A DNA stretch of 64,000 nt, taken from an uncultured Oscillospiraceae bacterium (GTDB taxonomy: Bacteria > Bacillota > Clostridia > Oscillospirales > Oscillospiraceae). The notes beneath the pieces are model-generated. The model searched no databases and had not been told where the DNA came from. It worked only from the letters and a program-made list of their open reading frames with translations. A program made the translations under genes and the position numbers. The DNA is taken from positions 15,064 through 79,063 of the forward strand of contig CALXDO010000027.1 in NCBI GenBank assembly GCA_944387075.1, read 5' to 3'. Shown piece by piece: positions 37,300 to 58,980 of the stretch; the stretch's first letter is position 1, and every line of letters begins with the position of its first letter.

Positions 37300-37313
37300 G
37301 GTTTCTCCCTCCT

Positions 37314-38942: not shown

Positions 38943-38953
38943 TGTCTCCCCCC

Positions 38954-40714: not shown

Positions 40715-40717
40715 GTG

Positions 40718-43009
40718 TTAGCCTCCAATCCAGAAGCAGGCCACCCGGTTGGTCCCATATGCTTCCAGTCTAGTCTTTCCTCCAATGATAAGATAGGTGT
40801 TGGCGTGGAGGTTTGTGGCCTGCACTCCCTGGGAATCGGCCACCAGCACCTGGTCGTTGTTGCGGCGGACGGTCATGCCGTCCTCGGTGATCTGTGTGGT
40901 CATCTCCGAGCCGGTCTTGCTCACCGTGAGCCCCTCCTCGTCGAAGGTAAAGCCTGTGGCGGTTTTGACCGTCTCCACGCCGTCGGCCAGCTTCTGCTCA
41001 ATGGCGATGTCCACTTGTTCCGGGGTGAGGGAGAGATTGACCCGCTGGGTCAGTTCGCTCATGGACTGCTCCACACCGTCCAGGGTGGTCTTGGTCTCCG
41101 TCTGCACCCGCTGCACCGTGGCAGAGATGGTATTGGTGTTCACCTCCAGGTCTGCAATCCGGGACTCTTGGGAGGTGATGATCTGGCCCTGGTTGGCTGT
41201 GGTGTCCTGTAGGTCGTTGATGTCCGATTGGGTATCCTCTGGGGCCGGAGTCCAGTCGGTGGGAGTGTTGCCAAGTTCAATCTTGAATCTCGAGCACACA
41301 ATATCTATATCTTCTGCGCCTGTTGAAAGCACAAATTGAAGATACGATGATCCGTTTCCAATCCCAACGATAATGACTCTTTTTGAAAAACCGGGATCAA
41401 GTACCATATTCCCGCCAACGCCATTAGTTGCGATGGTTACGGGTTCCTCTGAATTGTTTTTTATAAACGCTGAAAAAGTGTACTGCTGTCCTTTTACAGA
41501 TACCTTATCGTTTCCACACACAGCCTTGATTCTGCTTTCCCCTCCAGAAATCAAATATCGTATTCCGGTTATTCCTCCCCATTCTTCAACCGCAACTGAG
41601 GAATCTAAAACCGAAACAACAGCTCCATTATACGGCCTTAGAATAGGGCATTCAGATTCAAGCAGCAGGTTCCTCCCACCCACCTCAATCCCATCCACCT
41701 TTTGGTTGACCTCGGTGATCTGGGTGGTGTGCTGCTCCACGGTGGCGGAGATGGAATCCGCCTTCACATCCAGTTCTGACAGCTTTTGGGTGATCTCCTT
41801 CCTGGTCTGGGTAAAAGTTCCGTCCACAAACTCATGGAGGGCATCGTCGTTGGTGTAGTCGGAGGCCTTGCCCCAGTCTGAGGCCACATAGGCCCCGCTG
41901 GCCCGGGCTGTGTTGCACCGCATCAAATCCCCACTGGAGCCCTGAGCCCACAGGTCTCCCACGTCGTAGGGGGGCGTGGGCTGGGAGACAAACACCCTGC
42001 GTTTCCCGTCGGCGGTGTCCTGGGCCTTGGCGGCATCGGCCAAAGCCTTGGCCACCTCCACATCCTCAATGAGCACCCATTGATAAGTGCCGGACACGTT
42101 GGCCCAGCGATAGGCCTGTCCGCCAATGGTGTCGTTCTCTACGATGTAGAAAATGTCTCCCAAGTGGTTGATTTTGTCCTCCTGGGTGACCCAGGTGCTG
42201 GCAGGGGCATTGTCCGCAGTGGGAATGTAGTCATAAAACCAGGTCTGAATCTGCCCGTCAATCTGGGCTTGCAGCCCTTCCAGGCTGCCGGTGACGGTGT
42301 CGGTAAACCCGGCCAGGTTCTCGGTCAGCTGCTCCAGCCGCTCCCCCTGGCCCGTCACCGTCCCGGTGATCTGGGTGATGGTCTGGGTCTGTTCTGACAC
42401 TGTGGCAGTGAGGCCATCGGCGGTGAGGGCCAGGTCCGCCAGTTTCTCCGTCTGCGCCTGGATGGTACCCTCCAGAGTTCCAATGTCCTCCCCCTGGGTG
42501 GTGAGGGTTCCTTCAAACTCAGTGAGTTTGGTTTCCTGCTCTTCCACCGAGGCGGTCAGCCCCTGGGCGGTGAGCTCCAGTTGCGATAGCTGCTGCTTTT
42601 GGGAGGTGACGGTTCCCTGGATGTCGGTGATCATCCCGCCCTGCTCCCCCAGGGCCTGCTGCACCTCCTGGATCACCTGAATTTGGCCTTGCGCGCTGTC
42701 CTCCAGCTGCTGGATGCTCTCCTGCTGTCCCTGCACCATGGCTTTCAGGCCGTTGGCGGTGACGCTCAGCTGGGTGATCCGCTCCCCTTCCCCCTCAATT
42801 TGGGCATAGATGGGACGGGTCAAGGCGTTTTCCCACTGGGTCAGCGCGTTTTGGTTGACGTTGGTGGTGTCCAAGTTTTGGGTGGTGTAGCGCATTTGCT
42901 CCACCAACAGGTACAGATAGTTTTGCAGCTGGGCCAGCTTTTCCTCGGTGGTCTCGTCCCCGTTGAAGTTGGGAAATTGACTGTCCACATACAGCCAGTT
43001 GGATGGCAT
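40718..43009 (-). CDS. Phage tail fibre/host-specificity protein
   Basis: Coiled-coil repeats, AQDTADGKRRVFVSQPTPPYDVGDLW, GGRNLL...ELGNTPTDWTPAPED module, C-terminal CFWIGG. Confidence 0.75.
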   Translation of the reverse strand: MPSNWLYVDSQFPNFNGDETTEEKLAQLQNYLYLLVEQMRYTTQNLDTTNVNQNALTQWENALTRPIYAQIEGEGERITQLSVTANGLKAMVQGQQESIQQLEDSAQGQIQVIQEVQQALGEQGGMITDIQGTVTSQKQQLSQLELTAQGLTASVEEQETKLTEFEGTLTTQGEDIGTLEGTIQAQTEKLADLALTADGLTATVSEQTQTITQITGTVTGQGERLEQLTENLAGFTDTVTGSLEGLQAQIDGQIQTWFYDYIPTADNAPASTWVTQEDKINHLGDIFYIVENDTIGGQAYRWANVSGTYQWVLIEDVEVAKALADAAKAQDTADGKRRVFVSQPTPPYDVGDLWAQGSSGDLMRCNTARASGAYVASDWGKASDYTNDDALHEFVDGTFTQTRKEITQKLSELDVKADSISATVEQHTTQITEVNQKVDGIEVGGRNLLLESECPILRPYNGAVVSVLDSSVAVEEWGGITGIRYLISGGESRIKAVCGNDKVSVKGQQYTFSAFIKNNSEEPVTIATNGVGGNMVLDPGFSKRVIIVGIGNGSSYLQFVLSTGAEDIDIVCSRFKIELGNTPTDWTPAPEDTQSDINDLQDTTANQGQIITSQESRIADLEVNTNTISATVQRVQTETKTTLDGVEQSMSELTQRVNLSLTPEQVDIAIEQKLADGVETVKTATGFTFDEEGLTVSKTGSEMTTQITEDGMTVRRNNDQVLVADSQGVQATNLHANTYLIIGGKTRLEAYGTNRVACFWIGG

Positions 43010-43102: not shown

Positions 43103-44185
43103 TTACACCTTTTCCACGTAGTCCAGACTGATCCATCCCGCTCCGGATTTGAGTTTGCCCCAACGGGCAGCACCGGGGCCGTCCGCCTCTTCCACGATGG
43201 TGTACACGCCGGGGGCGATAAAGCCCTGACTGGCGGTGTCCGTGCCGGGGCCGCTGCGGATGCGCAGTTCGGTGACCGACACCTTCACGGTGTAGGGTTG
43301 AAAGGTCGGGGCCGAGGGCTTGGAGGTTGTGGTAGATGCTCCTCCGCTGACCAGAATGAGATCCGTCTTTCGCACGGCTGCCACCACCACGCCGTCATAG
43401 GTGATGACACAGCGGTCGCCGCTCACCTCAGATACCACATGCTCCCTGTCATAGACGAAGGAGGCCAGGTTCTTGCCGTTATAGTCCTTGGCTCTCTGCT
43501 TGACCTTGACGATGCTGCCCTTGCCAACCTCTTTGGACGGGGCGGGGGCTGGAGCCGGTGTCGATCCATTGGTGGTCGTGGAGCCCCCCATAGCCGTCTT
43601 GACATCCACCCGGAACGTGTCCATGGACTTGCCGAACTTTGGGAACCAGTGCATCACGTCGGCGTGATTGCTGGCCACACCCCGCTGGTATCCCTCGCTG
43701 TGACAGATCACCACTCCGTCGGCCAGGGGATTGAGGCCGTACTGCTTGCACAGCATGGCGGTCACTTCCACCGCCTCCTGATACACCTTGCCAAAGTAGG
43801 TGGCATCGGTGAGGGCATCCTCACAGATTTCAAAGCTGATGTGGGTGTTGTTGGCACTGCCTCCTGAGGTGCCGGTGCCCGCGTGCCACCCCCGGTGATT
43901 CCAGGGCAGAGTCTGTACCGTGGCCACCGATCCATCGGCCAGCTTGCCCACAAAGGCGTGGACACACACATCCAGCCTACCGTGATTCCAGTCGTTGTCA
44001 TAGCGGTTGGTACCCAGCTTCTGGAGCAGCTGAGTGCTGTTTGCGTCATTGGCAGCGGGCTGCACATAGCGGGCCACTGCCGGGTTGTTGGCCCCGGTGG
44101 AGTGGACCATAACTCCCTTGGGCGTGATGGTTCGTCCCGCTTTGTAACAGTCGTTGTCGGTCAAAATACATTTAATCAGATTCAA
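43103..44185 (-). CDS. Endolysin, N-acetylmuramoyl-L-alanine amidase with SH3-like cell wall binding domains
   Basis: MVHSTGANNP, WHAG, FEICED, HSEG...NHAD, WGKLKSGAGWISLDY. Confidence 0.9.
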   Translation of the reverse strand: MNLIKCILTDNDCYKAGRTITPKGVMVHSTGANNPAVARYVQPAANDANSTQLLQKLGTNRYDNDWNHGRLDVCVHAFVGKLADGSVATVQTLPWNHRGWHAGTGTSGGSANNTHISFEICEDALTDATYFGKVYQEAVEVTAMLCKQYGLNPLADGVVICHSEGYQRGVASNHADVMHWFPKFGKSMDTFRVDVKTAMGGSTTTNGSTPAPAPAPSKEVGKGSIVKVKQRAKDYNGKNLASFVYDREHVVSEVSGDRCVITYDGVVVAAVRKTDLILVSGGASTTTSKPSAPTFQPYTVKVSVTELRIRSGPGTDTASQGFIAPGVYTIVEEADGPGAARWGKLKSGAGWISLDYVEKV

Positions 44186-44423
44186 TGCTGGTTACCTCCT
44201 CCACAGCCTCTTGCACATCCTCAATGGCGGTTTTCACGCCTGCGGCGTCAATGCGCCCTTCGGTGACGATGTATGTCACCACCGAGATCACCGACACCAC
44301 CGCTCCCGCTGTACTGGCCACCGCCTCCTGATCCAGCCCAAAGGCCAGGGCCAGTCCCGCCGCAATACCAGCCAGAGCCGTCCACAGCTTCCGACTGGAC
44401 AATTTTCTGCATAGTACCTCCAC
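44172..44423 (-). CDS. Putative holin
   Basis: RKLSSRKLW, two TM helices, YIVTEGRIDA; directly upstream of endolysin. Confidence 0.75.
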   Translation of the reverse strand: MEVLCRKLSSRKLWTALAGIAAGLALAFGLDQEAVASTAGAVVSVISVVTYIVTEGRIDAAGVKTAIEDVQEAVEEVTSIESD

Positions 44424-44427
44424 GCTC

Positions 44428-44766
44428 TCACTCCTTCTCGTAAGCCGCCAGAATCTCTCGATCCAGCTTTTTCTTGATCTCCTCGGCCTGGGCCAGTTCC
44501 TCCATGGCCTGGGCCAGTTCCCCATTGGGAGGCGACTTGGTCACAGCGTGGTTAAGCCAGAATATGCACCGGCCATAGGCATGGTGCAGCTGGTCCTCCA
44601 CCTCCTGCCGCCGTTGACGGTGCTCCTGCCGCTGCAACGCCTCCGCCTCCCCCTGTTCCAACCTCCGGTCGATGTATCGCCGCAAGTAATTCATGGCCAG
44701 GCCCGTGATGCCGCTGCCCCCGGCCAGGGCCAAAAGCACCGCTGCCAGTAATTCCTCCCCGTTCAT
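44428..44766 (-). CDS. Lysis-cassette membrane protein with one TM helix and coiled coil
   Basis: N-terminal hydrophobic helix; position before holin. Confidence 0.55.
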   Translation of the reverse strand: MNGEELLAAVLLALAGGSGITGLAMNYLRRYIDRRLEQGEAEALQRQEHRQRRQEVEDQLHHAYGRCIFWLNHAVTKSPPNGELAQAMEELAQAEEIKKKLDREILAAYEKE

Positions 44767-44826
44767 TCCATCCCTCTCCTGTGTATCATGCGCTCCAGGC
44801 TGCCTCCCAGCATCCGGTCCAGCCAC

Positions 44827-45234
44827 TCATCCAACATCCGCTTCACGCCCGTCACCCCCCTCCTGTGTGGGTACATGGGCGGGGTCGTAGGTACGGATGT
44901 ACCAGTTGACGTAGTTTTGATAGCTGGCGTTGAAGCTCTCCATGCGGTTTTGGTACAGTTCCAGTTCCCCGTCCGCCTGGTGCAGCTTGGCCAGAAGCCA
45001 GTGCAGGTAAAGGTCACTGTGGGGCCACCCCACCGCCAGGGTTCCCGGCCAGTTCTGCCACACCTGCTCCAGCTGCTGGGGGGTGGCCAAATGCACGTCC
45101 AGGGAAATCCGTCCCTCCAGTTCCCCCAGCCAACTCAGCTTCTGCTCCTGGCTGTACTGGTTGGGACAGAGCAAATCCGCCTGGGTCAGGATGTCCATGG
45201 CCTGGGGGTATCGGCTGGTGTCAGCCACGGTCAA
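44827..45234 (-). CDS. Putative head-tail adaptor
   Basis: 135 aa ORF immediately after capsid; PNQYS..KLSWL..LEG, LYLHWL motifs. Confidence 0.55.
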   Translation of the reverse strand: MTVADTSRYPQAMDILTQADLLCPNQYSQEQKLSWLGELEGRISLDVHLATPQQLEQVWQNWPGTLAVGWPHSDLYLHWLLAKLHQADGELELYQNRMESFNASYQNYVNWYIRTYDPAHVPTQEGGDGREADVG

Positions 45235-45281
45235 ACCTCCTCTCTCACTCCCTCCCCGGCTTTGCCGGGGAGGGAAACCTC

Positions 45282-46292
45282 TTAGTTGGGCAGCTCACTG
45301 CCGTCGGTCATGCCGCCCACGGCGGCAAAGCGCCAGTCGTTGAAGGTGGCGTTGAAGCGGCTGCGGCCACGCCAGACGTTGGCGTCGGTGTTTTCGTCCA
45401 CAGTGGAGCGCACCGCCAGCTGGACGCGGTCATTCCACACCGCGCCGCCGTAGGTCTGGTTGTACTTGCTATCCAGCAAAATCCAGGGGGCCTTCCCGGT
45501 GGTGAGGTTGACAAACTGGTTGAGGTAGCTCCACACAATGACGGTCCAACGGCCATACTGGTAGTTGAAGGCGTTGTTGGAGGTGGTGGGCTCCTTGTCT
45601 GCGCCAATGGCGGCAAAGACCGCCTTTTTCAGGCTGCCCACCTCAGGAATCAGGATGGTGTCGGGGGCCACGTCCAGAATCTCGTCGTTGTCGCCTCGGA
45701 ACAGGTGCATAGCCGTCTCCATTTTCCCCAGAGCATCCACAGAAAACTCATCGTTAAACTTGTTGGACTGGGCCTCTCCGGACACCTTGGCGGGGTGCTT
45801 GGTGTGGAACATGGTGACCCCGTCGGCGCTCTTGATGTCAAACTCCCGGCCCTTGTACAGCACCTTGTCCTTGCCGGAGATGGCGCCGCCGTAGAGAGCG
45901 GCCCCAAACAACTCTCGGGTGCGATTGTAGCTGGTGATGAAGGCAGCGGGCTGCTTTTTCATGTCCATGACCTTGGAGTCCTCCATCATCTCGGCGGAGA
46001 TGGAGAAGGAGTCCTTCCAGGTATCGTACACCAGCAGCTTCTGGTAGCCCTCCTGCATGCCATCCAGGGGATAGGCCCCGTTTTCGCCCACCGGCTCAAA
46101 GCCGCTCATGGCGGTCATGGTGGTCATGAGGTCGCCGTAGTTCTCGCTCTTGCCCATGAGAAAGAGGTCTTTCAGAACCGACTGCTTTTCAAACTGCTCC
46201 CCCCGCTGCTCCAAGAACATGCGGATGGGGGCCTGGCACTTGCCATAAATGCTGTCATTGAGGCCGGAGCCTTCAGAGAATGTAATTTTCAC
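45282..46292 (-). CDS. Major capsid protein (Mu gpT-like, HK97 fold inferred)
   Basis: 336 aa after scaffold and decoration genes; FEPVGENGAYP, ADG..F...H, PDTILIP, WILLDS. Confidence 0.75.
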   Translation of the reverse strand: MKITFSEGSGLNDSIYGKCQAPIRMFLEQRGEQFEKQSVLKDLFLMGKSENYGDLMTTMTAMSGFEPVGENGAYPLDGMQEGYQKLLVYDTWKDSFSISAEMMEDSKVMDMKKQPAAFITSYNRTRELFGAALYGGAISGKDKVLYKGREFDIKSADGVTMFHTKHPAKVSGEAQSNKFNDEFSVDALGKMETAMHLFRGDNDEILDVAPDTILIPEVGSLKKAVFAAIGADKEPTTSNNAFNYQYGRWTVIVWSYLNQFVNLTTGKAPWILLDSKYNQTYGGAVWNDRVQLAVRSTVDENTDANVWRGRSRFNATFNDWRFAAVGGMTDGSELPN

Positions 46293-46313
46293 GCTTTCAC
46301 GCTCCTTTTCGTT

Positions 46314-46706
46314 TTACTTGAATCGACCGCGGACGGTCGCACCTTGTGCGGTTCCGTGGACTTCTACCAGCTCGAAGTTCCCCTCTCCTTCACTGGCAGT
46401 AAGACCATCGGCGTCCACCTGCATCTTCACACCGGGCTTTGCATCGGCGTACAAGGCTTTGAGCTGGGTCTCATAGATGCAGTCTCCCTCCACCCGGGTC
46501 ACGGGAATCACCTGACCCTCGGCAGCTTTCACATCCGCCATGCACAGGTAGGGGGGTGTTTCGGTGCTGGCCAGGCTCAAAGCGGCCAGCTTTCCCTCGC
46601 TGACGGTGAGCATCTGACCGGCCCGGTAGGTGCCCGCCGCTGCGCCCAGGTACTCCCAGGGCAGCATGGCCTCTGTATCACGTTTCACAGGTACAAACAC
46701 TGTCAT
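46314..46706 (-). CDS. Putative capsid decoration/cement protein
   Basis: 130 aa beta-rich ORF between scaffold and capsid, ends VRGRFK. Confidence 0.5.
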   Translation of the reverse strand: MTVFVPVKRDTEAMLPWEYLGAAAGTYRAGQMLTVSEGKLAALSLASTETPPYLCMADVKAAEGQVIPVTRVEGDCIYETQLKALYADAKPGVKMQVDADGLTASEGEGNFELVEVHGTAQGATVRGRFK

Positions 46707-47437
46707 TTTCCTCCTTGGTACTTGTTGTAGTAAGCTTGAATGGCCGTCTCACTGGCCTGGGGGTTGAAGGCCCGGAACAGGTTCATCTCCTCCACCGGTA
46801 CCGAAGCCCCACCTTTGCCTCGCTGGGTGGCTGCCACCAGATGCCCCTTGCTCCGGGCCAGGTTCTGGGCCTGCTGCCGGGCCGCGGTGGCTGCCTGCTG
46901 GGTCAGTTCGTCGTAGTGGGCCAGTTTGTAGGCGTCCACGAAGTTGTTCCCCCGCTTGACCAGCTGGTAGAATTCCTGGGCACGGGGCATGGTAAGCAAA
47001 TCCTGCACCGTGCGGATGTTGGGGTTGAACTGGCGAATCTGGGCCAGTTCCACCTCCACCCGGGCCTCCATGTCCGGTTGGCTGGGTTGGGGGGTGGCCA
47101 CAGGCTGGGCCGATTGGCCCTTCTTCCAGGCCCGGTACTGCTCCAGGCTGGTGATGGGGGTACCGTCGCTGGGATTTTTCAGCCCCGCATCCTGCAACAC
47201 CTCTTCCACATCCCGCCGGGCACTGGTGCGCTCCACCTCCACCGCCTCTTGGATGGCGGCTCGGGTCTCCTCCCGCCGCCTGCGGGCGGCGTTTTCCCGG
47301 CGCTGTTCCAGGCTCATCTCCCCCTGGGGCACCTGCTCCTGCTGTTGGGGTTCCTGCGCTGCCTGGGGCTGAGTTTGCTCCTGCTGGGGCTGCTCCACCC
47401 CCAGGGCCTCATAGACCTGTTCTTGGTTGATTTCCAT
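46703..47437 (-). CDS. Putative scaffolding protein
   Basis: Q/E-rich helical protein between portal and capsid; ENAARRRRE, SKGHL. Confidence 0.6.
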   Translation of the reverse strand: MEINQEQVYEALGVEQPQQEQTQPQAAQEPQQQEQVPQGEMSLEQRRENAARRRREETRAAIQEAVEVERTSARRDVEEVLQDAGLKNPSDGTPITSLEQYRAWKKGQSAQPVATPQPSQPDMEARVEVELAQIRQFNPNIRTVQDLLTMPRAQEFYQLVKRGNNFVDAYKLAHYDELTQQAATAARQQAQNLARSKGHLVAATQRGKGGASVPVEEMNLFRAFNPQASETAIQAYYNKYQGGK

Positions 47438-47513
47438 GGTGATCCGTTCCTTCCTGCCCCCGTTGAGGGCGTTTGGATGTTCCCGCTGTCCCTGCGTATT
47501 TGGTTGGGCTTGG

Positions 47514-47648
47514 TTACTTCTTGCCCTGTCTCAGGTCACCGCCGGTGTGGACGGTGCCGGTCTTGGTGGCGGTGGTCTGGCAAGGTGCTTTCACCACCTG
47601 GGTACCGGTGTTCTGAATCCGGCCGATGTACCCGCTCTGTTCCTTCAT
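47514..47648 (-). CDS. Small basic phage protein (44 aa)
   Basis: Hand-translated MKEQSGYIGRIQNTGTQVVKAPCQTTATKTGTVHTGGDLRQGKK; G-rich RBS upstream. Confidence 0.6.
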   Translation of the reverse strand: MKEQSGYIGRIQNTGTQVVKAPCQTTATKTGTVHTGGDLRQGKK

Positions 47649-47681
47649 TTCATTCCCCCCCTTCCTAGAGAACGCCGAATT

Positions 47682-49739
47682 TTATTCAGGAGTCCCCTCT
47701 ATTGGCATGTTCCCGCTGTCGCCTTGCGCGAATATGTGTTCTTGTCCCACTGGGGTCTGGGCTTCCCGGCTGGCCCGCTGTTCCAGGGCCTGCTTGGTCT
47801 CCCCCGCCCCGGGATAGTGCAGCTGCTCCATTTTGGTCCAGAACAAGATCAGGGTCTCGGTGGCCGCCGGGTCGCCAAAGGCCCCGGTTTGAAGGTTCTG
47901 CCGGGTCTCCTGCCACATGGCCTCCCGGTTGCTGGCCAGGGTGTCGGTGGTGTCCACCGAGAAGAGAAACTGATCGTTCCAGTAGTACTGCCCATCCTGG
48001 TCCCGCTCCAAAAAGTCATAGCGGTTGAACTCCTCATATTGGGTGTGGCCCTGGGCGTCCCGATATGTGACGGGCCGAGGCTCATCTCCGTAGGCCAGCC
48101 AAAATTCAAACATCATGCGGAACAGGTCAGCATAGGCCCGATGTTTCATCACCCGCTTGCTCTCCAGCCGTCCGGCGGCCTGGGCGGCGGAAAACTCCTT
48201 GGCCTTGCCGCTGGTGGCGGTGGTGTCGGAACGGCCCTGGTAGGAGTCGGTGATGCCCAGAATCTGCCGGGCCTCCTCGTAGACGTTGGAGAGGTAGAGC
48301 AATTCGTACTCCAAATCCCCCTTGAAGTCGTACACCCCGATCATGGCCTTATCCGCCGCCGAGCCGATGTACCACCGTTCCCCGTCCTGGCTGTCCACCC
48401 GCAGCGAAGCGTTGTCGGGCAGAGTGATGCGGGTGCCCGCTTTGATGAGCCGGTCAATGATCTTCTGCTCCAGGCGGTTGATGGTGTTTTGCTGGTCGGC
48501 AATCATATCTACGTCGGAATTGCCCAGCAGTTGTCCATATACCGACACACTGCGCTGCAGCACAATGGGGAACACCCCCGGCTGATAGAAGGGGATAAGG
48601 GTGGGGCGCAACACCGGGTTTCCCTCCTGGTCCAGGTCAGGGGTGGCCCCTGCCACCTCCAACCCTTTCCCCGTCACCATGGGCAGGAGCACCTGCTCAT
48701 ACGCCTGCACCTGGTCCTCAAATTCCCCGCAGCCGCACCAGGGGCAGGCCCCGCCCTGGTACTCCCGGGGGATCTCCTGGGGGGCCGGCTCCACCGGAAT
48801 GCTGTCCAGCCCACCGCCCCCAGCCATGGTCTCCTGGGCCAGGATCTGAGCCAGTCTCTGCCCTGCCACCTGGGCCTGTATCTGCTCTTCCACGCCGGGC
48901 TGGATGGGGGCGGCAGGCTGTTGGATGAGCTGCCCAGGCAGAGGCTGCACCCGTCCGCACTGGCGGCACACCGGCTGGCGGCGGGCCTGGTAGTCCTCCA
49001 AATCCTCCAAGGGGGTGTCGTTGACCCAGCAGTACCGGTTGACCCCTCCCTGGGCGTTTTTCTCGTAGCCCACATAGCGGGTGAGGGCATCCTCGGCGGA
49101 GCTCACCCCGTCCACCCCCCGCACCGCCGGCTCGGACTCGCCGTCCTCCTCCACCCAGATGCCGTACTCCCGGTAAATGGCGTCCCGGGTGGTGGGAATC
49201 TTCACAATGATCCAGTCCATGTCCTGGATGGAGGTGAACACCCCCGGCTGGGGGGCCAGCTGCTTGGGGTGGAGCATGCGCACCACCTCGGTGCCCACTG
49301 TGTCATGGGTGCGGGAGCGGTTGTCCCACTCCACCAGAAAGGCCACCCCGCCCTGGATGGGCACCGTGCGCTCGGCCAGGTCATTGAGTTGGGCAAAGGG
49401 GAGCCGCTCCAGTTCATTGCGCAAAAAGTGCTCCAGACGCTGGGCCAGTTCCTCATCCTCCCGCCGTCGGGGGGTCACCTTGGGCTGGGGGATGGCGCTG
49501 GACACTTGGGTCTCGATGTTTTCAAACACAATGTTGCGCACATGGCTGGTTTTTCGGGGGCCGCCGTCTCTTCTCGTGTCCCCAGGCACCAGAGGGCGCA
49601 GCTGGTCGTCTCCGTTGTAAATCCGTTCCCGCTGGTCCATGCGGGTGTACTCGGCGGAATAGGCAGCGTTGCTCTGGCTGAGCCGCTGCTGCCACAGCTT
49701 CAGCTTCTCCCCCGACTTTTGTTGGCGTTTTCCCTTCAT
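47682..49739 (-). CDS. Portal protein (P22-like)
   Basis: 685 aa directly after terL; NIVFENIETQV, IPQPKV, LGITDSYQG...SGKA. Confidence 0.8.
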   Translation of the reverse strand: MKGKRQQKSGEKLKLWQQRLSQSNAAYSAEYTRMDQRERIYNGDDQLRPLVPGDTRRDGGPRKTSHVRNIVFENIETQVSSAIPQPKVTPRRREDEELAQRLEHFLRNELERLPFAQLNDLAERTVPIQGGVAFLVEWDNRSRTHDTVGTEVVRMLHPKQLAPQPGVFTSIQDMDWIIVKIPTTRDAIYREYGIWVEEDGESEPAVRGVDGVSSAEDALTRYVGYEKNAQGGVNRYCWVNDTPLEDLEDYQARRQPVCRQCGRVQPLPGQLIQQPAAPIQPGVEEQIQAQVAGQRLAQILAQETMAGGGGLDSIPVEPAPQEIPREYQGGACPWCGCGEFEDQVQAYEQVLLPMVTGKGLEVAGATPDLDQEGNPVLRPTLIPFYQPGVFPIVLQRSVSVYGQLLGNSDVDMIADQQNTINRLEQKIIDRLIKAGTRITLPDNASLRVDSQDGERWYIGSAADKAMIGVYDFKGDLEYELLYLSNVYEEARQILGITDSYQGRSDTTATSGKAKEFSAAQAAGRLESKRVMKHRAYADLFRMMFEFWLAYGDEPRPVTYRDAQGHTQYEEFNRYDFLERDQDGQYYWNDQFLFSVDTTDTLASNREAMWQETRQNLQTGAFGDPAATETLILFWTKMEQLHYPGAGETKQALEQRASREAQTPVGQEHIFAQGDSGNMPIEGTPE

Positions 49740-51265
49740 GTTCCTCCTCCTTCATGTTCTCCGGGCCTGCCCCACAGGCGCAGGAGCAGCTCCCGCTCCT
49801 CTCCGCTGGCCCGGTTCCAATCCTCCCACATATCCGGCGTCCACCGGTTTTCCCCCTGGGCACGGGGATGGCTCAGGCGCATGGACTGCTGGGGGCGCAC
49901 ATAGTGGGCAATGGCCAGGGCCATGATGCAGTCGTCGTGGGCCCCCGGCTCCGCCTCGGGCCGCATGGCGGAGTTGCGCACAAAGGTGAGCATCTCTTCC
50001 AGGGTTGCCTTGTCATGGACGCTGTCCAGGTGATCCCGCATCACCCGCACCAGTTCCGCCAAGATCACCGGGCGGGTGAGCCGGTCGGTGCGAAAGCCAT
50101 AGGCGTGGTGGATTTTCCCGTCGAAGGAGTCCTCCACCTCCCGCACATACAGCTTGGGATAGCCCATCAGCCCCAGCAGCTTCACCGGATAGGTGGAGAA
50201 ATTGCACTCGGGGGCCAGCAGGGCCTTGTTGTAGTACAGCCCCAGGCAATAGAGCTGGCGGGTGTAGGTGTCCTCGTCGTACTGGTGGCGGAGAGTGCAC
50301 ACCTGCTCCCCGGTGAGGTTGTCCAGTACCTGGGCCACAAACCAGTCCGAGCCATCCCCGGCGGTGTCGCCGCCGATGACGTAGGGCCGTCCCTCCTGGG
50401 GCGGGGCGTACATGCACACCGGCCCCCCCTCCTCCTCCACCCATTGGATATGATCCAGGTGGATGCCGTCGGCGGATACCTGATACTCAAACAGGCCCTG
50501 GCGCACCGGCGGGGCCAGCTGGCTCAGCCGCTGGGCCACCGCCTTGCCATTGAATACCGTCTTCCCCGTCACGCCCCACTGGCCCAGGCAGTAGACCATG
50601 TAGTAATACTCATCCGTCTCCCGGAACCCCTCCAGGGTGGCCACCGCCTCTTTTGTCAGAAAGCGGTTGTCCTGGTAGGTGCTCTCGTGCACCGTGGCCC
50701 GGGGGTCGTGGCGATCGAAGAACCGCTTTTTCAGCCAGTGGGTGGCGCTGATGGGGTTGAAGGTCAAAATCATCTGGAGATATTGGTTGAAATCCGTTCT
50801 CAGACGGATGTCCAGCTGGTTGAAGTCCCCCTCCTCCAACTCCGAGGCCTCCTCAATCCAGATGCCGGTGATGTTGAAGATGGATTTCAGCTTTTCCACG
50901 TCGTCCAGCCCCGCAAAGAGGATGACGCTGCCGTTTGCAAAGGTGATGGTCATGACAGACTTGTTGGTCTTGGCCCCGGCGTCGGGGTAAAAATCCGAAA
51001 TCTGCCCCACCAGCTGCGCCCAGCAGCTCTCCCGCAGGGTACGGGCCACCTTGCGGCACACCAGCCACCGGTGTCCCGGCTCACTGGTCACCCGCTCCAG
51101 CACCTTGCGCCCGGCAAAGATGCTCTTGCCGCTGCCGCCGCCCCCCTTGAGCACCAGAAAGCGGTGCTGGTCGAAAAAGAGGGGGAGAAAGGTCTCGTTG
51201 TTGGTCTCCTTCAGCCCCTTGTACCACAGCAGAGCCTGGTCTGTGTTGTCATGGTTCATGGCCAT
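49736..51265 (-). CDS. Terminase large subunit (PBSX/Terminase_3-type ATPase)
   Basis: KGGGGSGKS Walker A, WIEEASE Walker B, LTFNP, YVIGGDTAG nuclease Asp, HDDCIMALAIA. Confidence 0.93.
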   Translation of the reverse strand: MAMNHDNTDQALLWYKGLKETNNETFLPLFFDQHRFLVLKGGGGSGKSIFAGRKVLERVTSEPGHRWLVCRKVARTLRESCWAQLVGQISDFYPDAGAKTNKSVMTITFANGSVILFAGLDDVEKLKSIFNITGIWIEEASELEEGDFNQLDIRLRTDFNQYLQMILTFNPISATHWLKKRFFDRHDPRATVHESTYQDNRFLTKEAVATLEGFRETDEYYYMVYCLGQWGVTGKTVFNGKAVAQRLSQLAPPVRQGLFEYQVSADGIHLDHIQWVEEEGGPVCMYAPPQEGRPYVIGGDTAGDGSDWFVAQVLDNLTGEQVCTLRHQYDEDTYTRQLYCLGLYYNKALLAPECNFSTYPVKLLGLMGYPKLYVREVEDSFDGKIHHAYGFRTDRLTRPVILAELVRVMRDHLDSVHDKATLEEMLTFVRNSAMRPEAEPGAHDDCIMALAIAHYVRPQQSMRLSHPRAQGENRWTPDMWEDWNRASGEERELLLRLWGRPGEHEGGGT

Positions 51266-51794
51266 CTGGCAGCTTCCCCTGCCCCCCTCCTTCCCACAGC
51301 TCTTGCAGCAGCGCCAGCTTCTCCTGGGTGGTGAGGGCTTGGGTCTGCCGGGTTTGGGGGCCTGCCTCCACCTCCACCTTCTGGCTGTAGCCATAGTTGT
51401 TTTGCAGGTGGAACATCACCCCTTTCACATCCTTGCGGGTGAGCAGCTGTTCCTCGTTCCACGCCCGCAGCACCCCATTGACCCACTCCGTGGCCTCCTC
51501 CAGTTCCGGGTGGGCCTGGTGGTCACACCAGGCTTTCCAGGTGCCGGGGGTGATGCCCAGGTGCAGGCAGATTCCCGTGATGGTGGGCGGAATCACATAC
51601 TCCCGGGTGCGAATGACCTCCCCCCGGTCGTTGTATACCTCCCTGCGCTCGTGCAGTGGGCGGCCCTTCTCATCCACCTCTCCGGTGGCCACTTGTTCTG
51701 TGACCTCCACCGTGCGGCTGATGGAGTCCAGGTATTGGCGTACCTCCCGCATCAAAGCCTTGGACGTGTTTGTTTGTCGCTGTCTGGCAGCCAC
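51249..51794 (-). CDS. Terminase small subunit
   Basis: PPTITGICLHLGI HTH, GVMFHLQNNYGY; overlaps start of terL. Confidence 0.75.
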   Translation of the reverse strand: MAARQRQTNTSKALMREVRQYLDSISRTVEVTEQVATGEVDEKGRPLHERREVYNDRGEVIRTREYVIPPTITGICLHLGITPGTWKAWCDHQAHPELEEATEWVNGVLRAWNEEQLLTRKDVKGVMFHLQNNYGYSQKVEVEAGPQTRQTQALTTQEKLALLQELWEGGGQGKLPDGHEP

Positions 51795-51886: not shown

Positions 51887-52165
51887 TTACAATTCATAGG
51901 GAAACCGTTCATAATATCGCTTCAACGCCCGATAGAGGCTGGTGGGCGAGGCGATATAATGTCTCTGACACACGGACTTGATGCTCTCCCCCGTGGTGAC
52001 GTGCTCCAGCAGAGCCTGCCCGTGTTCTCCCCCTACGGTAGTACACAGGCTGCGCACCCGCTCCCTCTCTTGGGCAGACATGTGGGAATAGGACAGGGAC
52101 TTGAAGTAAATGTACCCCTGCCGTTCATAGGGCAGAGCAATCCCGGGTTTATATCGAAATTTCAT
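51887..52165 (-). CDS. Putative late-gene transcriptional regulator
   Basis: 92 aa basic protein with C-terminal HTH-like SIKSVCQRHYIASPTSLYRALKRYY, immediately upstream of terS. Confidence 0.5.
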   Translation of the reverse strand: MKFRYKPGIALPYERQGYIYFKSLSYSHMSAQERERVRSLCTTVGGEHGQALLEHVTTGESIKSVCQRHYIASPTSLYRALKRYYERFPYEL

Positions 52166-52394
52166 GCTTTTCTCCTTCTCTCCGCTGTTCCACCAAGGCC
52201 TGAAGTTCCTCCTGGCTATGGGTGGAGACAAATTTTCCATAGGTGGTGTGGCTCTCCCGGGCCAGACGGGAGACCCATATCAAATCCGAGGTTCTGGCCT
52301 TAGGCTCCACCGGGAACCACGCCTGAAACTCCGCCTCAATCTCGGCGTCCGCCCGTGCCATCTCCTCCCGTTCCTGGTCGGTGAACCCTGCCAC
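52149..52394 (-). CDS. Hypothetical phage early protein
   Basis: GGAGGTG RBS, GTG start, coupled to neighbours. Confidence 0.55.
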   Translation of the reverse strand: MAGFTDQEREEMARADAEIEAEFQAWFPVEPKARTSDLIWVSRLARESHTTYGKFVSTHSQEELQALVEQRREGEKHEISI

Positions 52395-52566
52395 GGCGCC
52401 TCACCTCCTTCTCCCGCGCCACCTGGCACTGCCAGGCAATGGCCACCCAGGGCACGCCCCAGACCTTGGCCGCCTGCTCCACTGCCTGCAAGCGATTTTC
52501 CGCCTGCACCTTGACGGCCTTTTTCCCCGGGTACTCCACCCGGTACTGATACACCCTCTCACTCAC
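52336..52566 (-). CDS. Hypothetical phage early protein
   Basis: ORF coupled to upstream gene; AAKVWGVPW. Confidence 0.5.
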   Translation of the reverse strand: MSERVYQYRVEYPGKKAVKVQAENRLQAVEQAAKVWGVPWVAIAWQCQVAREKEVRRRGRVHRPGTGGDGTGGRRD

Positions 52567-52945
52567 GGCTCCATCCCCCTCCCACCGGCACCGTCATGAC
52601 TGTGGCCATCACCGCCAGAATGTGGTGGGCGGGCACCCCCAGCCAGATCTCATAGCCCCGGATGAGGGCCTCCAGGGCATCCATGGCCGCTGCGGTGCTG
52701 GATGCCTCGATGACCTGGCAAAACCGGTCGCTCCCCTCCTCCTTGTGCACTTCCAGGGTCACCTGTTGGCCCTGGGTGCGCTTTCCTCCGTGATACACCA
52801 TTTCTTCCCGCTGCATGTTTCGCTCCTCCTGATCTTGTGTGGAATGTCTCCACGCCAGGCCCTGGGCATAGCCCCAAAAATAGGCCTGTTCCCGCTGCCC
52901 CAGCTGGGGCAAGCGGACGCAGAGTCTTTGCATGATCTCTTCCAT
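52559..52945 (-). CDS. First gene of the early operon (hypothetical; possible internal start)
   Basis: GGAGGAG RBS at 52945 and a second AGGAGGAG before MQREE. Confidence 0.55.
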   Translation of the reverse strand: MEEIMQRLCVRLPQLGQREQAYFWGYAQGLAWRHSTQDQEERNMQREEMVYHGGKRTQGQQVTLEVHKEEGSDRFCQVIEASSTAAAMDALEALIRGYEIWLGVPAHHILAVMATVMTVPVGGGWSRE

Positions 52946-52960
52946 GGAACTCCTCCATTT

Positions 52961-53028
52961 ATTGATTTCTCGATTATAATATATCGGTTAATGATATTTG
53001 TCAAGTCCTTTTTATTGATTTGGTCAAT
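52961..53028. promoter_or_regulatory. Divergent switch region with leftward promoter and candidate operators
   Basis: Minus strand TTGACA-17-TATTAT (53004-52976); palindromes ATTGA-N5-TCAAT (53014-53028) and ATTGA-N4-TCGAT (52961-52974). Confidence 0.6.
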
Positions 53029-53109
53029 CCTTCTTCTTGTACTTCTTCCCAGACCGTGGTAAAATACGGTGGTATACCCCCGTGTTCGTTGGAGAAATGG
53101 AGGATTTGT

Positions 53110-53487
53110 ATGAGTGTTGGACAACGCATCCGCCAGGTGCGCAAAACCTATAAACTGACCCAGCAGGTGTTTGCCGATCAGCTGGGCTTGAAGCAAAACA
53201 CCATTGCCACCTATGAAATCGAGAAAACTACCCCCAGTGACCGAACCCTTCTGGACATCTGCCGGGTGTTCCACGTCAATGAGGACTGGCTGCGCACGGG
53301 AGAGGGCAAAATGATGCAATCCCCCACCCCCCAGGCGGAAGTGGAGCAGCTGACCGCTTTCCTTGGGGAAGTGGTGGGGGAGCACAGCTTCCGCTCCCGG
53401 CTCATCTCCGCCCTGTCCCGGCTCAGTGATGAGGACTGGGCGGTGCTGGAGCGTCTGAGCAAAGACCTGTCGAATTCCGAAGCATAA
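53110..53487 (+). CDS. XRE family (CI-like) repressor without peptidase domain
   Basis: RIRQVRK..LTQQVFA..LG...IATYE, VNEDWLRTGEG; 125 aa; divergent from phage operon. Confidence 0.88.
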   Translation: MSVGQRIRQVRKTYKLTQQVFADQLGLKQNTIATYEIEKTTPSDRTLLDICRVFHVNEDWLRTGEGKMMQSPTPQAEVEQLTAFLGEVVGEHSFRSRLISALSRLSDEDWAVLERLSKDLSNSEA

Positions 53488-53535
53488 AAAATCCCCGGGC
53501 ATCCAAGCAAAAAACTTGAATGCCCGGGGATTTTT
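53487..53535. terminator. Bidirectional terminator between repressor and small SOS gene
   Basis: aaaaatccccgggcat...atgcccggggattttt. Confidence 0.75.
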
Positions 53536-53541
53536 CCCCAT

Positions 53542-53649
53542 CTACCGGTTTAGGTAATGGGAAATAAACTGGAAAATGGCGCGTAGCTGGGCCTCATCTG
53601 CCCGGTCCAGCAAGTCTATGATCGCCGCTTTGATCCATTTACGTTCCAT
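53542..53649 (-). CDS. Small protein (35 aa), putative SOS-induced antirepressor
   Basis: Hand-translated MERKWIKAAIIDLLDRADEAQLRAIFQFISHYLNR; GGGAGG RBS. Confidence 0.6.
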   Translation of the reverse strand: MERKWIKAAIIDLLDRADEAQLRAIFQFISHYLNR

Positions 53650-53686
53650 TTTCCTTCCTCCCTATGGTGTGCGATGTCATGATTCC

Positions 53687-53715
53687 ATTATAATCGAACA
53701 TCTGTTCTGTTTCAA
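53687..53715 (-). promoter_or_regulatory. SigA promoter with LexA (SOS) box in the spacer
   Basis: Minus strand TTGAAA-17-TATAAT; GAAC-atct-GTTC at 53696-53707 matches the Bacillota LexA box GAAC-N4-GTTC. Confidence 0.8.
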
Positions 53716-53851
53716 GAGGGGTGCTGTCAAAACTTGTCTAAAATTGTCCGTTCTATGGGACTTTTGTATGATACCATAAAAAAATATCGAAGGACGTCGA
53801 AAAAAGTCGAACGGACGGGAAAAATTTCCCGTCCGTTCAATATTTCTCAAA

Positions 53852-56051: not shown

Positions 56052-56232
56052 TGAGGACTTGACTTCTTCCACCCTTTCCTGTACCATACACAATGTGGAT
56101 GCTGGAAGCTCCACTTGGTTTCTGAAGAAGCCCCATTCCTGCAATACGATCATATTCCGTTTTTCAGAAGAAAAATGGGTTGTCAGAAGGCATACTTTCG
56201 GAGTATGCCTTCTTTTTATGAAAGGAATCACC

Positions 56233-57000
56233 ATGACACTGGAAGAATTTTTTTCACAGCACCCCAAGGCGGCCCTGGCCTTCTCCGGGGGGGCGGACTC
56301 GGCCTATCTGTTGTGGGCCGGGCGCACCTGGGGGGAGGACGTGCGGCCCTACTATGTCTCCACCCCCTTCCAGCCCGCCTGGGAGCGGCGGGATGCCCAC
56401 CGTCTGGCCCAAGAGCTGGGGGTGCCTCTGACGGTGGTGGAGCTGGACGTGCTGGCCTGCCCCCAGGTGACCGCCAACCCGGCAGACCGGTGCTATCACT
56501 GCAAACGGGCCCTTTTTTCCGCTCTGTGGCAACAGGTCCGGGCCGACGGCTTCTCCCTGCTCCTGGACGGCACCAACGCCTCAGACGACGCCGGTGACCG
56601 CCCGGGCATGAAAGCCCTGGCCGAGCTGGAGGTGCGCTCCCCTCTGCGGGAGTGCAGCATCACCAAGGGGCAGCTGCGCCAGCTCAGCCGCCAGGCGGGG
56701 CTGTTCACCTGGGACAAACCCGCCTACGCCTGTCTGGCCACCCGCATTCCCACCGGCACCCCCGTCACCGCGGAGGACTTAGCCCGGGTGGAGGCGGGGG
56801 AAGATGCCCTGTTCGCCCTGGGCTTTACCAACTTCCGCCTTCGTCTGCGGGGGGATGCCGGGCTGCTCCAGCTGCCCGAGAGCCAGATGACCCGGGCCAT
56901 CACCCACCGGCAAGAGCTGCTGGATGCCCTCACCCCCCACATTTCCCACATCAGCCTGGACTTGCAGCCCCGGCCCGAGGAGGAGTTCCATGGACAATAA
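56233..57000 (+). CDS. larE: ATP-dependent sulfur transferase LarE
   Basis: AFSGGADS PP-loop, RCYHCK, DGTNASD..DRPG, KPAYACLATRIP. Confidence 0.9.
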   Translation: MTLEEFFSQHPKAALAFSGGADSAYLLWAGRTWGEDVRPYYVSTPFQPAWERRDAHRLAQELGVPLTVVELDVLACPQVTANPADRCYHCKRALFSALWQQVRADGFSLLLDGTNASDDAGDRPGMKALAELEVRSPLRECSITKGQLRQLSRQAGLFTWDKPAYACLATRIPTGTPVTAEDLARVEAGEDALFALGFTNFRLRLRGDAGLLQLPESQMTRAITHRQELLDALTPHISHISLDLQPRPEEEFHGQ

Positions 57001-57751
57001 ACAGGATGTGCTCTCCCTGCTGCGCCAGGTGGCGGACGGCTCCGTCACTCCGGAGCAGGCGGCTCTGGAGTTCAAACGCTCCCCCTTTGAAAATCTGGGC
57101 TACGCCCGGGTGGACACGCACCGCGCTGTGCGCCAAGGTGCTTTGGAGGTCATCTACGGGGCAGGAAAAACCGTCCCGCAAATGGTAGGCATTGCCCAAA
57201 CCATGATGGAACACGGCAGCCACAACATTCTGATTACCCGGCTGGAGGAGGAGAAAGCCGCCCAGGTGGCCCAGCAAGTGCCTCTGAACTATTACCCGGT
57301 TCCCCGCATCGGGGTGGTAAACCACCAGAGCCGACCTTTGGTGGGCTCCATTGTGGTGGCCACCGGGGGCACCAGCGACATGCCGGTGGCGGAAGAAGCC
57401 GCTCTCACCGCCGAGGTGCTGGGCAACCGAGTCACCCGCCTGTACGATGTAGGGGTGGCGGGACTCCACCGCCTGCTCTCCTCTCTGGATGTGCTGATGC
57501 AGGCCCGGGTAGTCATCACGGTGGCCGGCATGGAAGGGGCCTTGGCCTCGGTGGTGGGCGGTCTGGTGGACTGTCCGGTCATCGCCGTGCCCACCAGTGT
57601 GGGGTATGGGGCCAGCTTTGGCGGTCTGGCCGCTCTGCTGTCCATGCTCAACTCCTGCGCCTCCGGGTGCAGTGTGGTCAACATCGACAACGGCTTTGGC
57701 GCGGGATTCCTGGCTAGCCGCATCAATCAAATGGAGGGTCTGCCGCAATGA
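56990..57751 (+). CDS. larB: Nickel pincer cofactor biosynthesis protein LarB
   Basis: EVIYGAGKT, GGTSDMPVAEEA, DVGVAGLHRL, AGMEGAL, PTSVGYG, VNIDNGFGA. Confidence 0.93.
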   Translation: MDNKQDVLSLLRQVADGSVTPEQAALEFKRSPFENLGYARVDTHRAVRQGALEVIYGAGKTVPQMVGIAQTMMEHGSHNILITRLEEEKAAQVAQQVPLNYYPVPRIGVVNHQSRPLVGSIVVATGGTSDMPVAEEAALTAEVLGNRVTRLYDVGVAGLHRLLSSLDVLMQARVVITVAGMEGALASVVGGLVDCPVIAVPTSVGYGASFGGLAALLSMLNSCASGCSVVNIDNGFGAGFLASRINQMEGLPQ

Positions 57752-58980
57752 ACACCTTATATTTACAATGTAACATGGGAGCCGCCGGAGACATGCTCAC
57801 CGCCGCCCTCTACGAACTGCTCCCCAACCAGGCGGAGTATCTCCACACCCTCAACCACATGGGGCTCCCCGGTGTGGAGTTCCACGCCCTTCCCGCCCAG
57901 TCCTGCGGCATCCAGGGCACCCACATGGATGTGGTGGTGCACGGAGAGCGGGAGGAGAGTGTGGACCACCATCCCCACGACCACGACCATCCCCATGACC
58001 ACGAACACCATCACCACCACGAACATGAGCACGAACATGGCCATGCGCATCACCACCACACCAGCCTCCACGACGTAGAGCACCTCATCTCCCACCTGAA
58101 TCTCCCCGCCCCGGTGCTGGAGCAGGCCCGGCAGGTGTACCACCGCCTGGCACAAGCCGAGTCCAAGGCCCATGGACAGCCGGTGGACTTGGTGCACTTC
58201 CACGAGGTGGGGGCGCTGGACGCCGTGGCGGATGTGGTGGCGGCCTGCTATGCCCTCCATCTGCTCTCCCCCGACCAAGTTGTAGTCTCCCCTGTCCATG
58301 TGGGCAGCGGTATGGTGCGCTGCGCCCATGGGCTGGTCCCTGTCCCCGCCCCCGCCACCGCCCACTTGCTGGAAGGGGTTCCCTGCTACGGTGGGGACAT
58401 TCATGGGGAGCTGTGTACTCCCACCGGAGCGGCACTGCTCTCCACCTTTGCCACCCGTTTCGGTGCCATGCCCCCCATGGTGCTGGAGAAAACCGGGTAC
58501 GGCATGGGGAAAAAGGAATTCCCCGCCGCCAACTGTGTGCGGGCCCTGTGGGGCCACACCCAAGAGAGCGCCGGGGAAATTTTGGAACTGGTGTGCAATT
58601 TGGATGACATGACCCCCGAAGCCCTGTCCTTTGCCTGCCAACGGCTGCTGGAAGAGGGGGCTCTGGATATCTACACCCTCCCCGGCTGCATGAAAAAGGG
58701 CCGTCCGGGGTGGCAGCTGGTGGCACTGTGTGACCGGGAACACAAAGAGCACCTGATCCGTCAGGTCTTTGCCCAGACCTCCACCACGGGGTTGCGGGTG
58801 CGCACCTGTGAAAAGCATATGCTCACCTGTACCTTCACCACCCGGGACACCCCTTACGGCCCGGTGCGGATGAAGAAGGCCCAGGGCTACGGGGTAACCC
58901 GCTCCAAGCCGGAGTATGAGGACATGGCCCGCATCGCCCGGGAACATAAGATTACCTTGAAACAGATTTTCCACAAGTGA
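57748..58980 (+). CDS. larC: Nickel insertion protein LarC
   Basis: GAAGDM, His-rich tract, VHFHEVGALD, PVPAPAT, NLDD, MKKGRPG, KPEYED; single uninterrupted ORF. Confidence 0.93.
   Translation: MNTLYLQCNMGAAGDMLTAALYELLPNQAEYLHTLNHMGLPGVEFHALPAQSCGIQGTHMDVVVHGEREESVDHHPHDHDHPHDHEHHHHHEHEHEHGHAHHHHTSLHDVEHLISHLNLPAPVLEQARQVYHRLAQAESKAHGQPVDLVHFHEVGALDAVADVVAACYALHLLSPDQVVVSPVHVGSGMVRCAHGLVPVPAPATAHLLEGVPCYGGDIHGELCTPTGAALLSTFATRFGAMPPMVLEKTGYGMGKKEFPAANCVRALWGHTQESAGEILELVCNLDDMTPEALSFACQRLLEEGALDIYTLPGCMKKGRPGWQLVALCDREHKEHLIRQVFAQTSTTGLRVRTCEKHMLTCTFTTRDTPYGPVRMKKAQGYGVTRSKPEYEDMARIAREHKITLKQIFHK

Follow-up and report, generated by a model that had tools for sequence, protein, structure and literature searches.

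The 35-aa micro-gene at 53542-53649 (minus strand) of the window, the whole stretch of 64,000 nucleotides of uncultured Oscillospiraceae DNA analysed here, is a real coding gene under strong purifying selection, and its product is probably a SinI/AimX-like, LexA-controlled antirepressor that operates without arbitrium. The peptide belongs to a widespread, unannotated family that is LexA-boxed and arbitrium-free, in which the type of mechanism is already known and the family itself is new; no published description of the family or the locus was found in the open-access literature, searched at the level of abstracts and with most subscription papers outside its scope. In the proposed switch, host LexA bound to a box between the −35 and −10 elements would keep the micro-gene off, and DNA damage, through the self-cleavage of LexA, would allow the peptide to be made. 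The peptide hairpin would then replace the partner subunit on the C-terminal helices of the repressor, as SinI does on SinR and AimX on AimC, and the repressor, unable to oligomerise, would come off the palindromes located within 52961-53028. Transcription from the leftward promoter would next reach the genes for packaging, head, lysis, and tail in a block that lacks integrase and replication genes and is chromosomally inherited, and the expected products would be non-replicating particles, most likely GTA-like. We infer LexA binding, induction, the peptide-repressor interaction, and particle production from the sequence.

Coding status and expression signals of the micro-gene

The initial annotation had described a 35-aa amphipathic open reading frame, and this description holds. 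The gene starts with ATG, and a strong ribosome-binding site (GGGAGG, 53657-53662, minus strand), which is kept in 7/7 aligned orthologs and is not sequestered by RNA folding, lies 7-8 nt upstream. Start, length, and ribosome-binding site are preserved among the orthologs; comparison with six of them gives dN/dS values of 0.012-0.104 at dS of 0.47-1.30, and third codon positions account for 23 of the 32 variable columns of the alignment. The encoded peptide is predicted to form a two-helix hairpin (helices 3-15 and 19-33; pLDDT 93.5) with amphipathic moments of 0.40 and 0.49, the best 19-mer having a mean hydrophobicity of 0.12.

Promoter scanning and the ortholog alignment both identify a sigma-A-type promoter, TTGAAA-17-TATAAT (53687-53715, minus strand), that matches 11 of the 12 consensus letters and carries GAAC-atct-GTTC in its spacer, exactly where it had been reported; it should be noted that 9 promoter-like sites occur between 50000 and 58000, compared with 2.6 in shuffled sequences. 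The micro-gene converges, as also proposed earlier, on the XRE repressor gene across a common intrinsic terminator (53488-53534), which folds into a hairpin on both strands (−40.1 and −31.8 kcal/mol, with z scores of −8.2 and −7.5) and is predicted to act bidirectionally. In four runs, all of them in the form of contigs, of which one is recorded as RNA, two are probably DNA, and one is unlabelled, coverage filled all 30 bins and the flanks as well and is thus uninformative on transcription, strand, or induction.

Some further elements lie close to the gene. A plus-strand promoter-like site, TTGTCC-17-TATGAT (53744-53772), is well conserved in 7 orthologs. About 35 nt beyond it is a strong hairpin (53807-53840) that also terminates the MATE gene; the promoter-like site occupies the position of the integrase in related prophages and might be read as a relic promoter or as the source of a short RNA. 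In L006 and L022 (G029), about 250 additional nt separate the terminator from the peptide gene, and G061 contains a sequence similar to this insert downstream of the promoter region, possibly a small repeat element.

The LexA-type box in the promoter

The spacer of the promoter contains GAAC-N4-GTTC (53696-53707). The bare 8-letter box is not enriched in the genome (22 found and 22.9 expected), so that the motif alone proves nothing, and the weight of this copy derives from its position, its conservation, and its profile rank. The −10 element together with a box having at most one mismatch is kept in 7/7 aligned orthologs, and all seven are identical in the −10 element and in the half of the box next to it. 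When the genome was scanned with a weight matrix made from 45 boxes upstream of peptides, all from outside the window clade, the window box ranked second and the box of the host lexA gene third, in agreement with its earlier assignment as a LexA-type motif; the first rank is held by a site ahead of an integrase-like gene (G000:C79:16849). The box upstream of host lexA itself has one mismatch, and host LexA retains the Ala-Gly, Ser, and Lys motifs, which we take to be the usual cleavage and catalytic motifs. No box was found in the 410 nt examined at host recA, and the SOS regulon of the host may therefore be small. Tandem high-scoring SOS boxes precede a small gene elsewhere in the genome (G000:C16:231-271). 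We infer from these results that 53696-53707 is a putative LexA site that LexA would bind.

The association between box and peptide extends beyond the window. Among loci with 600 nt of sequence available, a box with at most one mismatch is present in 50 of 80 peptide loci as opposed to 3 of 24 peptide-free loci, and perfect boxes are present in 27 and 2 of these, respectively. Control regions gave 1/77 (farther downstream) and 1/78 (upstream), and shuffled sequences gave 3.1 ± 1.8. The Fisher p value for the association, 1.5e-5, is overstated because related loci are not independent, and 30 of the 80 peptide loci have no near-consensus box within 600 nt. A scan of viral contigs for the pattern of −10 element plus box returned 73 loci, of which only 10 have a convergent HTH gene and 5 are matched by the peptide profile; many of the remainder lead to what are presumably other SOS-type genes (YolD-like and ImmA-like). 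The pattern scan thus supports the type of promoter and appears unfit for gathering the family.

A peptide family in Clostridia

Relatives of the locus were retrieved with an alignment of 54 repressor sequences; a query of viral contigs with the single repressor had given 22 candidates, none of which was confirmed, and the alignment was needed. The best 80 of 581 viral loci and the best 80 of 558 genome loci, with the window locus, made up a set of 161, of which 114 were left after dereplication at 90%. The seed profile was constructed from 63 convergent open reading frames outside the window clade, chosen by position, ribosome-binding site, and length; five seed reading frames (L132, L207, L208, L238, and L251) were dropped by eye. 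Among the 26,827 open reading frames of the genome the window peptide is the only significant match to this profile (E 3.5e-8; the next has E 1.3). In 82 of the 114 loci a convergent member lies no more than 400 nt from the repressor, a proportion that is partly circular because of the way in which the seed was picked. Of the 82, 19 are non-seed loci, 7 of them in the window clade; in 5 further loci the member is more distant.

A 74-member profile matches 920 clusters (50% identity) at E ≤ 0.001, whereas no Pfam family matches more than 2 of the 74 members and no PHROG family more than 1. Hosts of the matches listed are mostly Oscillospiraceae, Lachnospiraceae, and other Clostridia, and the closest among the matches listed (67-77%) come from Ca. 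Enterenecus, Pseudoflavonifractor, or Oscillospiraceae. A class-wide search with a 34-position profile matched 9 of 301 genomes, the 8 non-self matches being four stand-alone peptides, two C termini of HTH proteins, one longer protein, and one that is probably due to chance; as judged from this search, which is insensitive, the family is patchily distributed, as expected for prophages. Three unnamed clusters in the ESM Atlas, at 0.78-0.83, provide a lead only.

The repressors that accompany the peptide are at most 150 aa long in 80/80 loci, whereas 11 of the 24 unlinked repressors have long tails. The idea that peptide-free repressors may use ImmA gained little from a screen for the HExxH motif, which found it in 1/24 of their loci compared with 0/80 of the peptide loci, too few to support a conclusion. 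An integrase gene lies downstream in 40 of the 65 peptide loci with enough sequence, indicating that the module is a prophage lysogeny module, as opposed to 0/5 in the window clade. The peptide and repressor genes abut or overlap in several relatives, with gaps of −4 to 10 nt. Two variant arrangements were also seen. In L048, L050, L061, L062, and L092 the SOS-boxed promoter first drives a gene for a 70-72-aa HTH protein, and the peptide gene is located between it and the repressor gene; in L239, L243, L248, L252, and L254 the divergent gene encodes a protein of 150-165 aa, and the peptide is present in four of the five. We take these divergent proteins to resemble the C-terminal domain of Spo0A.

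The repressor, its operator, and the early operon

The XRE repressor (53110-53487, plus strand) has 125 aa, with an HTH region (HTH_19/HTH_3) at about residues 1-68 and modeled C-terminal helices at 74-89, 94-103, and 107-123. Domain scanning bears out the earlier statement that it has no S24 domain, and the parallel statement that no ImmA-type protease is nearby can be widened, because the 88%-complete genome contains no match to Peptidase_M78/ImmA (PF06114). Compared by fold over its full length, the repressor model has among its best matches the phi106 AimC-AimX complex (9sf2), DdrO, and SinR-SinI (1b0n), but the HTH dominates such scores; the repressor profile also matches 9sf2 in sequence (E 6.9e-8), over residues 6-83 only.

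A candidate repressor promoter, TTGTAC-17-TAAAAT (53037-53065, plus strand), was assigned by eye, since it is below the scan threshold, and has a largely conserved −10 region. The palindrome ATTGA-N5-TCAAT (53014-53028), invariant in 8/8 aligned orthologs, is a candidate operator, and the ortholog alignment discloses a related site at 52961-52974 that may have the same function. Between them lies the predicted divergent (lytic) promoter, TTGACA-17-TATTAT (52976-53004, minus strand), which was found by both the promoter scan and the ortholog alignment. The first gene of the lytic operon (52559-52945, minus strand) encodes 128 aa that have no Pfam or PHROG match and no match to a local HTH profile. 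Three small early genes follow (51887-52566, minus strand), recognised as open reading frames and by comparison with the prophage on contig C7 of the same genome; the last of them (about 92 aa) shares 42% identity with the gene that precedes terS in that prophage and possibly encodes a late activator.

A second family of small helix hairpins (45-55 aa, without an HTH) is encoded in the divergent early operon of 79 of the 114 loci, within 900 nt in 53 and farther away in 26; examples are 52817-52945 (minus strand) in the window, L097-L255 upstream of their repressors, and G000:C7:18597-18773. In the window clade the hairpin is fused to the next gene, and the N-terminal 42 or so residues of the 128-aa protein match its profile weakly (E 0.03 among 26,827 open reading frames; the orthologs in L178 and L182 score 21.7 and 15.0 bits). 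The profile aligns in register with the repressor C terminus (45%) and with the peptide (43%), as compared with 1-2% for reversed controls. This second hairpin is possibly another repressor mimic, which would lock the switch in place of Cro.

Resemblance of the peptide to the repressor C terminus

The initial annotation had proposed that the peptide mimics the C-terminal helices of the repressor, and profile comparison supports both the resemblance and the register. The peptide profile aligns with the last two repressor helices over 31 columns (hhalign probability 66%, E 5.7e-5), in the register previously proposed, as compared with 14% for the reversed profile and at most 2.7% for 30 column shuffles; one motif quoted for the peptide was, however, misread, since the sequence reads IIDLL and not LIDLL. 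It should be recognized that the score is modest, falling to 20% against the full-length repressor alignment, and that amphipathic hairpins tend to resemble one another. Two of the eight loci found by the peptide profile alone (L319 and L321) contain HTH proteins that are matched at their C termini, and the C terminus of an HTH protein in L048 is weakly matched, as would be expected if the peptide were a free-standing copy of the repressor pairing module.

The peptide also covaries with the C-terminal domain of its repressor. For 68 pairs the partial correlation of peptide similarity with similarity of the C-terminal domain (rho 0.30) is above all 300 permutations, whereas that with the HTH (0.10) is inside the permutation range, and a nearest-neighbour test favours the C-terminal domain over the HTH by 41 to 14; the physical linkage of adjacent sequences may contribute to this covariation, and related loci are not independent. 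A fold search with the peptide model, directed at solved SinI or AimX chains, did not discriminate (best Z 5.2): the C-terminal dimerisation domains of XRE proteins were recovered (7t5w, Z 4.9; 3ivp, Z 4.5; 6fxa, Z 4.3), tied with unrelated hairpins.

Alternative functions of the micro-gene

The sign of the effect of the peptide cannot be read from its sequence, and the peptide could instead be a co-repressor that strengthens or retargets the repressor, or could damp the SOS response through LexA or RecA. There are precedents among small phage proteins linked to SOS, in that GIL01 gp7 and Listeria AriS are described as acting on the SOS response (PMC4551915, PMC9043618). The resemblance and covariation nevertheless point to the variable C terminus of the repressor as opposed to a conserved host protein, and with repressors that have no S24 domain in a genome with no ImmA match an inducer would otherwise be missing; we therefore regard a co-repressor or SOS modulator as unlikely. 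A small toxin or lysis accessory induced by SOS and unrelated to the repressor would agree with the amphipathic character of the helices, and LexA-controlled peptides of about 30 aa such as TisB exist, but the peptide has no hydrophobic segment, its predicted fold is a hairpin, and the link to one repressor type and the covariation with its C terminus would be left unexplained, making this function most improbable. It is also very unlikely that the active product is the convergent transcript, silencing the repressor gene after SOS as an antisense RNA or through transcriptional interference, with the peptide secondary. The convergent orientation and the abutting or overlapping genes of several relatives would suit such a role, but a strong bidirectional terminator separates the genes in the window, it is the protein sequence of the peptide that is under strong purifying selection, and in phi106 a start-codon mutation is described as having abolished the effect (10.1101/2025.11.23.689978).

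Antirepression by the peptide is thus the preferred reading, but it need not apply throughout this group of phages, since the structurally closest prophage of the same genome, that on C7, has a repressor with neither peptide nor box and the phage family can therefore be controlled otherwise.

The phage-derived block

The switch borders an 18-kb block of phage-derived genes, all on the minus strand, in which the order leftward from the repressor is four small genes, terminase, portal, scaffold, capsid, lysis, and short-tail-type virion genes. Pfam and PHROG matches at 44827-51794 identify the terminase small and large subunits, a P22-like portal, a probable scaffold, the major capsid protein, and small conserved head genes; the lysis genes (43103-44826) encode proteins of 132 and 117 aa, holin-like as judged from position and hydrophobicity, and an amidase endolysin; and 35788-43009 encodes tail/adsorption proteins of 763 and 586 aa, a 547-aa virion protein (phrog_511), and a 503-aa protein. 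The left end of the block, 35788, adjoins a host alpha-amylase-like gene. Three local integrase queries found no integrase in the 64-kb window, only two of the early genes of the C7 prophage have counterparts in the block, no att-like direct repeats at the block ends were among the 20 largest families listed of at least 60, and the block yielded no gene for a contractile tail or sheath. Farther right, three plus-strand genes (56230-58980), the last with a His-rich stretch, look to us like larE, larB, and larC, presumably for synthesis of the nickel-pincer cofactor.

An amylase at least 87% identical is present in 8 of 78 genomes of the genus, the others being at most 71% identical or not found, and a capsid at least 93% identical is present in the same 8. 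Both flanks lie on one contig with the block in 4 of these 8 (G000, G035, G009, and G081), and the MATE flank (90-92% identity) is present in 7, G061 having another gene there. In a comparison of two genomes, block genes have dS of 0.42-1.03, compared with 0.61-0.73 for two host flank genes, and dN/dS of 0.08-0.59. Close relatives of the block occur as true prophages with an integrase, on C7 of the window genome and in G010. The block therefore looks like a temperate short-tailed phage minus its integration and replication functions, with the switch kept, that is inherited with the chromosome.

Some genes of the block have individual histories. The 130-aa head gene at 46314-46706 is 93% identical (dS 0.21) to G000:C7:2090-2473 and 76-81% identical (dS 0.93-0.96) to its orthologs, so that it is closer to the resident prophage and indicates that the fixed block and a prophage have exchanged sequence recently. 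Two sets of structural genes are present in G008 (C16 and C94): one, which has a prophage-type scaffold (49%), adjoins the amylase gene, and the other adjoins the MATE gene. The arrangement may be a tandem or a hybrid, or may be an artefact of assembly. The tail/adsorption genes (38954-43009) are the most variable, the 763-aa protein having an internal stretch missing from the orthologs, suggesting turnover of receptor range.

Possible products of the block and significance of the peptide family

From its genes, the block has features by which a gene transfer agent (GTA) is recognised: morphogenesis genes without integrase or replication genes, a fixed locus, vertical inheritance, and purifying selection. 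The chance that the block makes a GTA is about even. Only a little short of this mark is the chance that the switch acts as described and the block is something else, such as a PBSX-like particle for killing or lysis, a packaging module that depends on a helper, or a prophage that was immobilised recently and is still kept by selection. The small terminase subunit is full length (181 aa; PF16677, GP3_package; 65% identical to the prophage protein), unlike that of FpGTA, which is described as having no obvious DNA-binding domain (PMC12946183), and the head gene close to C7 and the second structural set of G008 indicate that exchange with live prophages continues. Retention in 8/8 clade genomes, dS values like those of the host flanks, and dN/dS of 0.08-0.59 argue against plain decay, whereas the absence of any contractile tail or sheath gene from those identified argues against a tailocin.

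Taking these observations together, it is conceivable, but we think it rather doubtful, that peptides of 30-45 aa constitute a main DNA-damage switch of gut Clostridia prophages with non-self-cleaving repressors, that the second hairpin of the early operon locks this switch in place of Cro, and that in one Oscillospiraceae clade the switch has been domesticated with a short-tailed particle as an SOS-inducible gene transfer agent. In Bacillota gut prophages, 448 with an HTH-only repressor are reported as against 63 with a complete one, and that report infers unidentified activators (10.64898/2026.06.25.734096). For part of these HTH-only-repressor prophages the peptide family would offer a concrete and cheaply testable answer, and it could be a marker for predicting prophage inducibility. 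The 35-aa peptide might serve as a handle to switch on prophages in laboratory strains of gut commensals, and would serve to induce the fixed 18-kb block and probe its GTA status; if the block is a GTA, antibiotic-type DNA damage would be tied to the packaging of host DNA in the gut.

Comparison with known systems

The nearest GTA-like precedent for the block, as judged by description, is FpGTA, a podovirus-like element of Faecalibacterium in the same order (PMC12946183). Both FpGTA and PBSX of B. subtilis, the latter under the control of an XRE repressor and inducible with mitomycin C, resemble the block in that genes for packaging, head, and lysis are fixed in the chromosome and replication genes are missing, but they differ from the window, which has one 18-kb block with its own repressor, an SOS switch, and a full-length small terminase subunit. 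Neither "repressor" nor "LexA" occurs in the available text of the FpGTA paper (PMC12946183).

With respect to the switch, the initial annotation had cited coliphage 186 Tum and the Gifsy antirepressors as precedents; LexA-controlled antirepressors do exist, but AimX/AimC and SinI/SinR are closer to the locus. Tum and GfoA/GfhA of Gifsy are LexA-controlled antirepressors (PMC3121763), and these and AntC of N15 are like the proposed switch in that a small LexA-controlled protein inactivates a non-cleavable repressor by binding to it. They differ in being proteobacterial, larger (Tum has 146 aa, about twice the length of GfoA), and dinI-linked, and the Gifsy proteins also in being encoded outside the immunity region; DinI has no match among the scanned open reading frames of the block, and the peptide has no family match to Tum, AntC, or the Gifsy proteins. 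Within the Clostridia, the accessible part of the paper on C. difficile phage phiCDKH01 deals with antirepressors of the KilAC type, without any mention of LexA (PMC11172241).

SinI and SlrA, two small helical antagonists of SinR, break the SinR oligomer (PMC3917956) and share with the peptide a unit of two helices that is similar to the C-terminal helices of the repressor itself (PDB 1b0n). They differ in that they act in chromosomal biofilm control and are not LexA-controlled, and in that sinI is upstream of sinR in the same direction. The SinI/SlrA family, PF08671, matches 0/74 peptides among 25 of the 28 weak families listed and has no match in the window genome at E ≤ 1.

The most similar arrangement is that of phi106, in which the 29-aa AimX, whose gene follows a LexA site, is reported to bind the C-terminal oligomerisation domain of the non-cleavable AimC and to prevent its attachment to DNA (10.1101/2025.11.23.689978; PDB 9sf2). 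A PDB sequence search with the peptide profile returned neither AimX nor another related chain, and the comparison is based on PDB chains and gene context. As in phi106, a short open reading frame (within 29-80 aa) at the window locus lies just past a LexA site, present here as a motif, and faces a short HTH repressor without an autocleavage domain. The window differs in that its divergent gene has no HTH, unlike the cro-like AimL, and in that its hosts are Clostridia, whereas phi106 is a Bacillus phage. It differs also in the input to the switch: the gene upstream of the micro-gene promoter encodes a MATE transporter and aimR-aimP is absent from the locus, so that SOS would be the only input.
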